Positions 9,001-11,186 of a stretch of 11,186 nucleotides of DNA are shown here, piece after piece. A program made the position numbers. Position 1 is the stretch's first letter, and the number at the start of each line of letters is the position of its first letter. Source of the DNA: a virus; UHGV virus genome UHGV-0120180; one strand, given 5' to 3'.

Positions 9001-11186
9001 ACAGTGGCAGAAAGTGTGGAAAGAGTTTGTTGAGGACGGAGGTAAAACCGGCTGGTTTAACATGGGTGACCTTGAAGGCCAGCAGAAGGAAATGGATCGC
9101 CTTGTATCGCTGGCGAAGGGAGGATGGAAAGGCCAGAGTATCGGTGCATGGCATTCGTTCCTGAACCTGGTCGAGGATGCCAACGGCGCGGTTGAAAACG
9201 CTCTGCGTCTTTCTGCCTATAAACACGCCCGTGATGCCGGTTTGTCACGCCAGCAGGCGGCATCTCTTGCCAAAAACATGACGGTGAACTTTAACCGTCG
9301 TGGTGAGCAGGGAGCGCTGATGAACTCGCTGTATATGTTTGCCAACGCCAGCATTCAGGGGACCGCAAACCTGGTGAGAACGCTCGGACATCTTAATGGC
9401 GACGGGCCGTTACTGGAGCGCCTTCGCTGGAAGAATCTCAATGTACCGCAGAAAATCGCGCTTGCAGCTGTGGGAGCGGGTTATCTGCTTGGCTCGCTTA
9501 ACCGCAGTGTGGCGGGTGAGGATGATGACGGGGTTAACTGGTACGACAAGGTGCCGTATCATGTGAAAGAGCGTAACCTCGTCATTATGAAATCGATGTT
9601 CGGGGGCAGGGCCGGAGAGTACTGGAGTATTCCTCTGCCTTACGGGTACAACGTTTTCTTCCTGCTCGGGCATACCTCTGAAGGTGTGGCAGCGGGCGAC
9701 CTGACGGCGTCCCGTGCTGCCGGTAATGTTGTCGGTGGTATCCTGGGGGCATTCAGCCCGATTGGCAGTGAGACGTCGGAAACGCTGTCCGGGGCATTGC
9801 TGAAAAATGCAGCACCGACAATTCTGCGTCCGTTTGCGAATCTTGCCATGAACGAAAACTTCATGGGGGCGCAGATTTACCAGGAGAACATGCCGTTTGG
9901 TACACCAAAACCTGACAGCCAGCTGGGAAGACGTTCAACGCCAGAAGCGTACAAGGCGTTTGCATCCTGGCTGAATGCGTTCTCAGGTGGCAGCCAGTAT
10001 CGTCCCGGCGCGGTGGATATCACACCGGAATCGCTGAAATTCTGGATTGACTATATCTCCGGAGGGACAGGGCGCTTCATTTCCAAAACCACGGATGCGG
10101 CGGTGAAATCGCTGCATGGTATTGATATACCGGAACAGCAGGTGCCCTTCCTGGGGAAAATTTCGGGTGAGGTGATGCCGTATGCAGACCAGCAGAAGAT
10201 GTACGACCGGATGACAGAGGTTGCGCAGTATCACGCAGAGCTGAAGAGTCTGACCGGTGCAGAAAGAACGGCGTTCATTGACGAGAACAACGGAAAATTG
10301 TTGATGAACGGGCTTATGCAGGATACCCGGAAGAGACTGAAGGATTTGCGCAAACAGCGCGATGCCATTTATGCCGACAGTTCTCTCAGTCTGGCGCAGC
10401 AGGCGGCGATGGTGAAATCGGTAGAGCGGGATATGAAGGTTGCCGTGGATCGCTTTAACCGCGAGTACAACAAAAAAGTGGGAGTGGATTAACAGAAATG
10501 GCCCCGTACGGAAGTGCGGGGCTGATTAAGAAATAAACACACATTAACCTGTAATAACCGGAGCTATTAACATATAGTCAGAAAGAGTATTTCATGTGAG
10601 ACAGAGAGCCGATTTATGTTTAATGAAGAAAAAGTTGCGTAAATGGCAGCGTATTTGCTGAAAAAACATGGCGGATCTATGCGTTTCATTAAGCTGATGT
10701 ATCTCTCTGACCGCAAAGCAATGGAGTTGTATGGTTTTCCCATTAGTGGTGATCATTATTTCTCTATGAACAAAGGACCCGTTTTATCGCAGACATATTC
10801 TTTGGTTAAGGATGGAAGCGAAAACGAGTACAGTCCGTGGGAATCATGGATATCTGATGTAGCGGATCATAAGGTTGAAATGTGGCGTACATTTTCTTCT
10901 GTTGATGAGCTGGGGGAGTTATCGCCCGCAGAAATAGAGTCAATGGACATAATTTTTGGTCAATATGGAGGTTGGGATGCGTTCAGGCTTTGTGATGAAA
11001 CTCACAGAATTTGCGGTGAGTGGCGCGATCCGCATGGTTCATCAATTCCAATCAGCCTTAAGGATATATTTATTGCTCTTGGAAAGTCGCCAGAAGCAGC
11101 AACAGTAATGGCGAATAGGTAAGCGACTCGTCAGAACCGTATTGATATTTACTGAGAGCTCAGATCAACTTTCCAGGGCAACAGAT

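Follow-up and report, generated by a model that had tools for sequence, protein, structure and literature searches.

Near the 3′ end of UHGV virus genome UHGV-0120180, a gene of the Panacea family appears to begin twice: a first ATG opens eight codons that end in an in-frame stop, and a second ATG follows that stop directly. This raises the question of how the arrangement arose, and of what it leaves of the gene. In the 11,186-nucleotide stretch analysed here, referred to below as the window, direct reading and translation give ATG at 10616–10618, then TTT AAT GAA GAA AAA GTT GCG (MFNEEKVA), TAA at 10640–10642 and ATG at 10643–10645, all in a single frame, which is exactly the layout reported in a first-pass annotation of this DNA. 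That annotation had proposed that ATG 10616 was the original start, that the TAA came from a single C-to-T change in a CAA codon, and that the gene might now be expressed only by reinitiation at 10643, be a fresh pseudogene, or reflect a sequencing error. The features of the locus are as follows.

10616–10642, plus strand: what is left of the 5′ end of the original Panacea ORF, now the eight-codon mini-ORF MFNEEKVA followed by TAA (read directly; the alignment of 99 homologues shows a conserved N-terminus, MF[NSC]E[ER]KVAQ)
10640–10642, plus strand: nonsense codon TAA in place of the conserved Gln9 codon CAA (C at 10640 in 933W, 75/02 Stx and cM8a)
10643–10645, plus strand: Met10 codon abutting the stop, an ancestrally conserved residue and candidate termination-reinitiation start
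10643–11118, plus strand: remaining Panacea/SocA-like coding sequence, codons 1–158 of the 174-codon ORF of relatives (PF13274, phrog_1281)
10691–10699, plus strand: single 9-nt unit AAGCTGATG (KLM), where homologues have two units (KLMKLL), seen as an alignment gap
10775–10783, plus strand: GPV motif (GGA CCC GTT), the Panacea-domain signature, kept and reading NKGPVLS
11119–11186, no strand given: end of an IS66-family (ISCro1-like) insertion sequence, beginning GTAAGCG; identity to full-length copies of the gene ends at 11118

The Panacea-domain reading frame and its prophage setting

The window represents the late or accessory end of a 933W-like (Stx-phage-type, Sepvirinae-like) E. coli prophage. 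It carries genes for a tail-tip protein, a Lom/Ail outer-membrane protein and a giant LPD5/LPD1/MuF_C/LPD38 polyvalent protein, the last of these ending at 10492, followed by the Panacea gene; positions 10480–11118 are 100% identical to four E. coli genomes. Among phage records, Escherichia phage PhiR5_2 (PV340546.1) comes closest, and its Panacea gene is 99.8% identical. Comparison of the window with this record splits near ~5525, with window positions 1–5525 matching 40046–45567 of the record and 5524–10500 matching the 3′ part of an 8.4-kb LPD/MuF gene, and ~6.6 kb is missing relative to PhiR5_2. The 1631-residue ORF that opens with GTG and spans 5597–10492 is a 5′-truncated remnant of a polyvalent-protein gene of ~2790 codons. 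A functional link between the Panacea gene and this upstream LPD/MuF gene was considered and rejected as a conserved association: the contexts of homologues are unrelated, and include P2-like prophages, a lambdoid lysis region, a tail region and an integrase-proximal position.

The ORF opened by ATG 10643 extends to 11122 in the window (159 codons) and matches the Pfam profile PF13274 SocA_Panacea (DUF4065) with an E value of 1.9e-19 and 71.1 bits, against a gathering cut-off of 25.7, residues 16–127 aligning with profile positions 2–112 of 113. It also matches phrog_1281 (E value 2.3e-36), where the alignment begins at profile position 15. Both the PF13274 match and the GPV signature thus place the protein within the Panacea-domain family, and the GPV motif is described as critical for neutralisation (PMC8832971).

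ATG 10616 had been credited with the better Shine-Dalgarno (SD) sequence, and its best pairing with the anti-SD is indeed the stronger (−2.9 kcal/mol, GAGAG-type, 8 nt upstream; the value for ATG 10643 is −1.0 kcal/mol, at 13 nt), but this bears out the claim only weakly, both pairings being weak. No sigma-70 consensus match that could serve as the gene's own promoter was found in 10380–10760. One terminator-like hairpin with a 5-bp stem lies at 10634–10650, a number within chance (one found against 0.3 expected). A GC-rich hairpin without a T-run (GCCCCG ... CGGGGC) is also seen at 10500–10522, just 3′ of the end of the LPD gene; the terminator scan did not pick it out.

Origin and spread of the in-frame stop

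A database search with the repaired (CAA) sequence returned 220 proteins, and the alignment comprised 99 full-length homologues with mutual identities of 40–85%, their sources being Mixta, Salmonella, Yersinia, Photorhabdus, Xenorhabdus, Aeromonas, Cobetia and many metagenomes. Met1, the equivalent of ATG 10616, is present in 98 of the 99, Phe2 in 96, Lys6 in 90 and Ala8 in 96. At the position of the stop, 98 proteins have Gln9 and one has His, and Met10 is found in 95. The FNEEKVA-type N-terminus is therefore a general property of these proteins, which do not uniformly begin at the equivalent of ATG 10643, and because Met1, Phe2, Gln9 and Met10 are near-invariant the ATG-TAA-ATG layout is not a chance juxtaposition. 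The database entries for two homologues, P0004 from E. coli and P0010 from Salmonella, begin with MAAYLL, and these were considered as possible cases of parallel nonsense mutation or genuinely short starts. In both, the DNA upstream reads ATG TTT ... CAA ATG, and a good SD-like sequence (AAGGTG and GGGGG, respectively) precedes Met1, so the short starts are choices of the gene caller and both candidates were set aside as start-calling artefacts.

The nearest relatives give the same picture. Across this segment, phages 933W and 75/02 Stx differ from the window only at 10640, where both carry C in place of T (CAA, not TAA), and strain cM8a also has C at this position. In the remnants of the gene that carry the CAA allele, PGAP places the start at the ATG equivalent to 10616. 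Among 5,426 complete E. coli genomes searched with a 41-mer centred on the site, the CAA form occurs in 157 and the TAA form in 18. Homologues and close relatives thus bear out the original start and the C-to-T change proposed in the first-pass annotation, and we conclude from these comparisons that ATG 10616 is the ancestral start and that the TAA is an inherited CAA-to-TAA (Gln9 to stop) change.

Copies with TAA are found in the 18 complete E. coli genomes, in PhiR5_2, in five IMG/VR contigs and in two metagenome contigs. The complete genomes originate from Mexico, Germany, Australia, Galapagos wastewater, Chile, China, Japan and Kenya, and include a frigatebird isolate and an NCTC strain. 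The TAA lineage has diverged by at most ~1% and is very young. In 17 of its 18 complete-genome copies the 174-codon ORF after the stop is uninterrupted, and RefSeq calls these copies intact; given the youth of the lineage, an open frame of this kind is expected by chance. PhiR5_2 is annotated with a 174-residue protein from the equivalent of ATG 10643, the same start that RefSeq uses.

All TAA copies have the full-length gene as far as their contigs extend, whereas the CAA copies in the phage group are all 5′ remnants. The 933W-type remnant has an internal deletion of ~395 nt that joins nucleotide 82 of the gene to nucleotide 478, and the 75/02-type remnant continues into unrelated DNA after nucleotide 112. 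No intact, full-length CAA copy of this lineage was found in the 5,426 E. coli genomes, in 50,697 phage records or in IMG/VR. The Panacea gene of this phage group has therefore been inactivated independently at least three times, twice by deletion and once by a nonsense mutation.

Loss of the partner gene and signs of decay

Outside the Stx-phage group, all seven homologue loci examined (in an E. coli P2-like prophage, a Salmonella lambdoid prophage, two from Mixta, two from Yersinia and one from Photorhabdus) have an intact partner ORF of 132–134 residues, a member of phrog_19071, that abuts or overlaps the Panacea stop; in several of them the overlap is ATGA. The partner ORFs lie at the following positions of the locus sequences.

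L008: 3531–3935
L009: 3555–3959
L014: 3609–4010
L007: ~3543–3941
L012 and L013: ~3567–3965

Several records leave this ORF unannotated, and the family has the invariant motifs DHLxI.C, VNISS and G(D/E)HxFI(R/K)H. Neither PADLOC nor NCBIfam has a named family for the Panacea gene or its partner; PHROGs lists them as ‘unknown function’ only, and the partner has no Pfam match. On the basis of its position in these modules, the phrog_19071 protein is a candidate for an uncharacterised PanT toxin.

Searches with tblastn revealed no trace of the partner in the window, in PhiR5_2 (L001) or in L005, a full-length E. coli copy. In PhiR5_2 and L005, a convergent ibrB-like gene lies 89 nt downstream of the Panacea gene instead. 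Since the conserved partner of ~134 residues is absent, the Panacea gene of this lineage is an orphan antitoxin homologue. It differs from a PanAT module in lacking both an adjacent partner and an intact native N-terminus, given the stop at Gln9, the loss of KLL and the cut C-terminus.

The KLL deletion (K29, L30 and L31, in helix 2) is common to the TAA lineage, while these residues are present in 98–99 of the 99 homologues. The AAGCTGATG unit encoding KLM occurs in one, two or three tandem copies among otherwise near-identical relatives (L004 and L022–L052 included), which indicates a slippage-prone in-frame repeat inside a conserved helix. Loss of three residues amounts to about one helical turn and might be tolerated.

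Substitution patterns also set the Panacea gene apart from its neighbour. Within the TAA lineage there are two protein alleles, separated by a single synonymous change and four nonsynonymous ones (D141N, S149L, Y161N and S171G). With 108 synonymous and 414 nonsynonymous sites this gives a dN/dS of ~1, a value that rests on five substitutions. In the tail of the adjacent LPD gene, a genome pair carrying the two alleles (L005 and L006) shows 40 synonymous and seven nonsynonymous codon differences, a dN/dS of ~0.05. The difference in pattern between the two genes has a Fisher's exact p of 0.005, with small numbers. Four of the five allele substitutions are clustered in the last 34 codons, and these 3′ changes could represent a single recombination tract.

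Copies with the TAA have been disrupted further, at least four times independently. L054, represented by many contigs, has a −1 frameshift in an A6 run (window 10661–10666) together with an IS3-family insertion near codon 90 (L054 1776–2953). In L056, a 78-nt deletion takes out the GPV motif. Strain JNEC-KY204 (L006, NZ_AP045180.1) carries an IS1A element inside the eight-codon leader, at about window position 10627 (L006 1748–2445). In the window itself, the end of an IS66 element is inserted in codon 159 and supplies AGG TAA, where relatives run 16 codons further. This IS66 tail matches thousands of copies of IS66-like ISCro1, and the junction was compared with L057; it is absent from all 5,426 complete E. 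coli genomes. Because of this additional truncation, the window copy is best called a pseudogene. More generally, the sequence evidence indicates that the Panacea gene appears to be under relaxed constraint and decaying. Among the three outcomes that had been envisaged for it, a fresh pseudogene is the best supported, in view of the lesions, the lost partner and the dN/dS of ~1.

Possible expression from Met10 and comparison with known systems

To place the missing residues in a structural context we modelled a 185-residue homologue, P0007, with AlphaFold2 (mean pLDDT 93.7, pTM 0.90); no solved structure of a relative was found in the PDB by profile, or by Foldseek with the model. By the secondary-structure assignment of the model, helix 1 is predicted to span residues 4–18 and helix 2 residues 24–42. 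In bacterial translational coupling, ribosomes can restart at an ATG placed right after a stop even when no strong SD precedes it, and restart at ATG 10643 is accordingly a plausible outcome of the TAA-ATG arrangement. The resulting Δ1–9 product would lack six of the 15 residues of helix 1 as well as the KLL turn of helix 2, and the model suggests that it would probably be hypomorphic or inactive.

The following course of events would account for the locus. A Panacea/PanA-like antitoxin gene would have been an accessory ‘moron’ just downstream of the giant LPD/MuF gene, starting at ATG 10616. A CAA-to-TAA change, vertically inherited, would stop ribosomes from 10616 after eight codons, and some of those finishing the leader could restart at Met10 to yield the Δ1–9 protein at a reduced level. 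With the partner gone there would be nothing to neutralise, and the gene would drift toward loss. We consider it probable that this explanation as a whole, an inherited nonsense mutation in an orphan antitoxin gene that has lost its partner and is decaying, is the right one.

Alternatively, the gene may still be functional, with a shortened 174-residue protein made from ATG 10643 by termination-reinitiation or direct initiation and maintained by selection; it could, for instance, act on its own as an antitoxin to toxins of the host, and the leader might then merely lower expression. This would fit the open 174-codon frame in almost all of the complete-genome copies and in a phage that can be induced and forms plaques on K-12, the wide geographical spread of the TAA allele and the intact GPV motif, and the adjacency of stop and start would favour restart. 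However, a maintained protein would not be expected to show a dN/dS of ~1 beside a neighbour at ~0.05, nor repeated secondary disruption; conserved residues 1–9 and KLL are lost, the partner is absent and ATG 10643 is essentially without an SD. On balance we regard a retained function as unlikely.

A further alternative concerns the absence of intact copies in 933W-like phages, which could reflect not neutral decay but active selection against an intact orphan antitoxin, or selection for a strongly attenuated, restart-dependent and N-terminally trimmed version of it; we find this quite improbable. Programmed readthrough or recoding of the stop, giving a full-length protein from ATG 10616, finds no support beyond the frame being preserved across the stop, and we judge it highly improbable: of the stop codons, TAA works most efficiently in E. 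coli, there is no evident recoding signal (the sole local hairpin being the 5-bp stem within chance expectation), and the stop is a recent, derived state limited to one shallow clade. A sequencing or assembly error in the window, raised a priori in the first-pass annotation, can be practically discounted, as the identical TAA 41-mer recurs in 18 independently assembled genomes, PhiR5_2, five IMG/VR contigs and separate metagenome contigs.

Our preferred reading, that of a decaying orphan antitoxin gene, can be set against known systems. In PanAT modules (Kurata et al., 2022, PMC8832971) PanA is the type II antitoxin, and the gene studied here resembles it in its PF13274 domain, its GPV motif and its phage- or prophage-borne location. 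The protein is likewise small (~185 residues), without an extra N-terminal domain, and its homologues are tightly paired with a small partner gene downstream, a PanAT-like bicistronic layout of the kind described by Kurata et al., 2022 (PMC8832971). Unlike PanA, the TAA lineage has no partner, a nonsense codon at Gln9 and a three-residue deletion, and in the window it is truncated by an IS element. On the partner side, phrog_19071 has no annotated function and is a candidate toxin. The intact two-gene modules of other prophages, the nonsense allele with its possible restart and the deletion remnants nevertheless form a natural series for the study of PanA, which could be used to ask if neutralisation depends on the conserved helix at the N-terminus.

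SocA of Caulobacter crescentus, a type VI antitoxin that acts as a ClpXP adaptor for SocB, belongs to the same domain family (Pfam SocA_Panacea). Unlike SocA, the locus gives no sign of a proteolytic-adaptor mechanism and has no SocB-like partner, and ClpXP and Lon were dispensable for the PanAs tested by Kurata et al. (PMC8832971).

The locus can also be likened to the ordinary pseudogenes of cryptic or defective lambdoid E. coli prophages, with which it shares point nonsense mutation, IS insertions and deletions. A large deletion affects the surrounding prophage too; the prophage in the window looks defective from its sequence. Nothing of substance distinguishes the two, and the locus looks like an ordinary decaying gene that involves no new mechanism. 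Its one oddity is the conserved Met directly after the stop, which leaves an ORF that is ‘intact’ to RefSeq. The main value of the analysis is accordingly for annotation: RefSeq WP_032270877.1 and WP_032144006.1 and the PhiR5_2 coding sequence, shown as intact ‘Panacea domain-containing proteins’, are the post-stop remainder, and the annotated 174 residues belong to a gene that is without its first nine conserved codons, one helical turn short and no longer accompanied by its partner.
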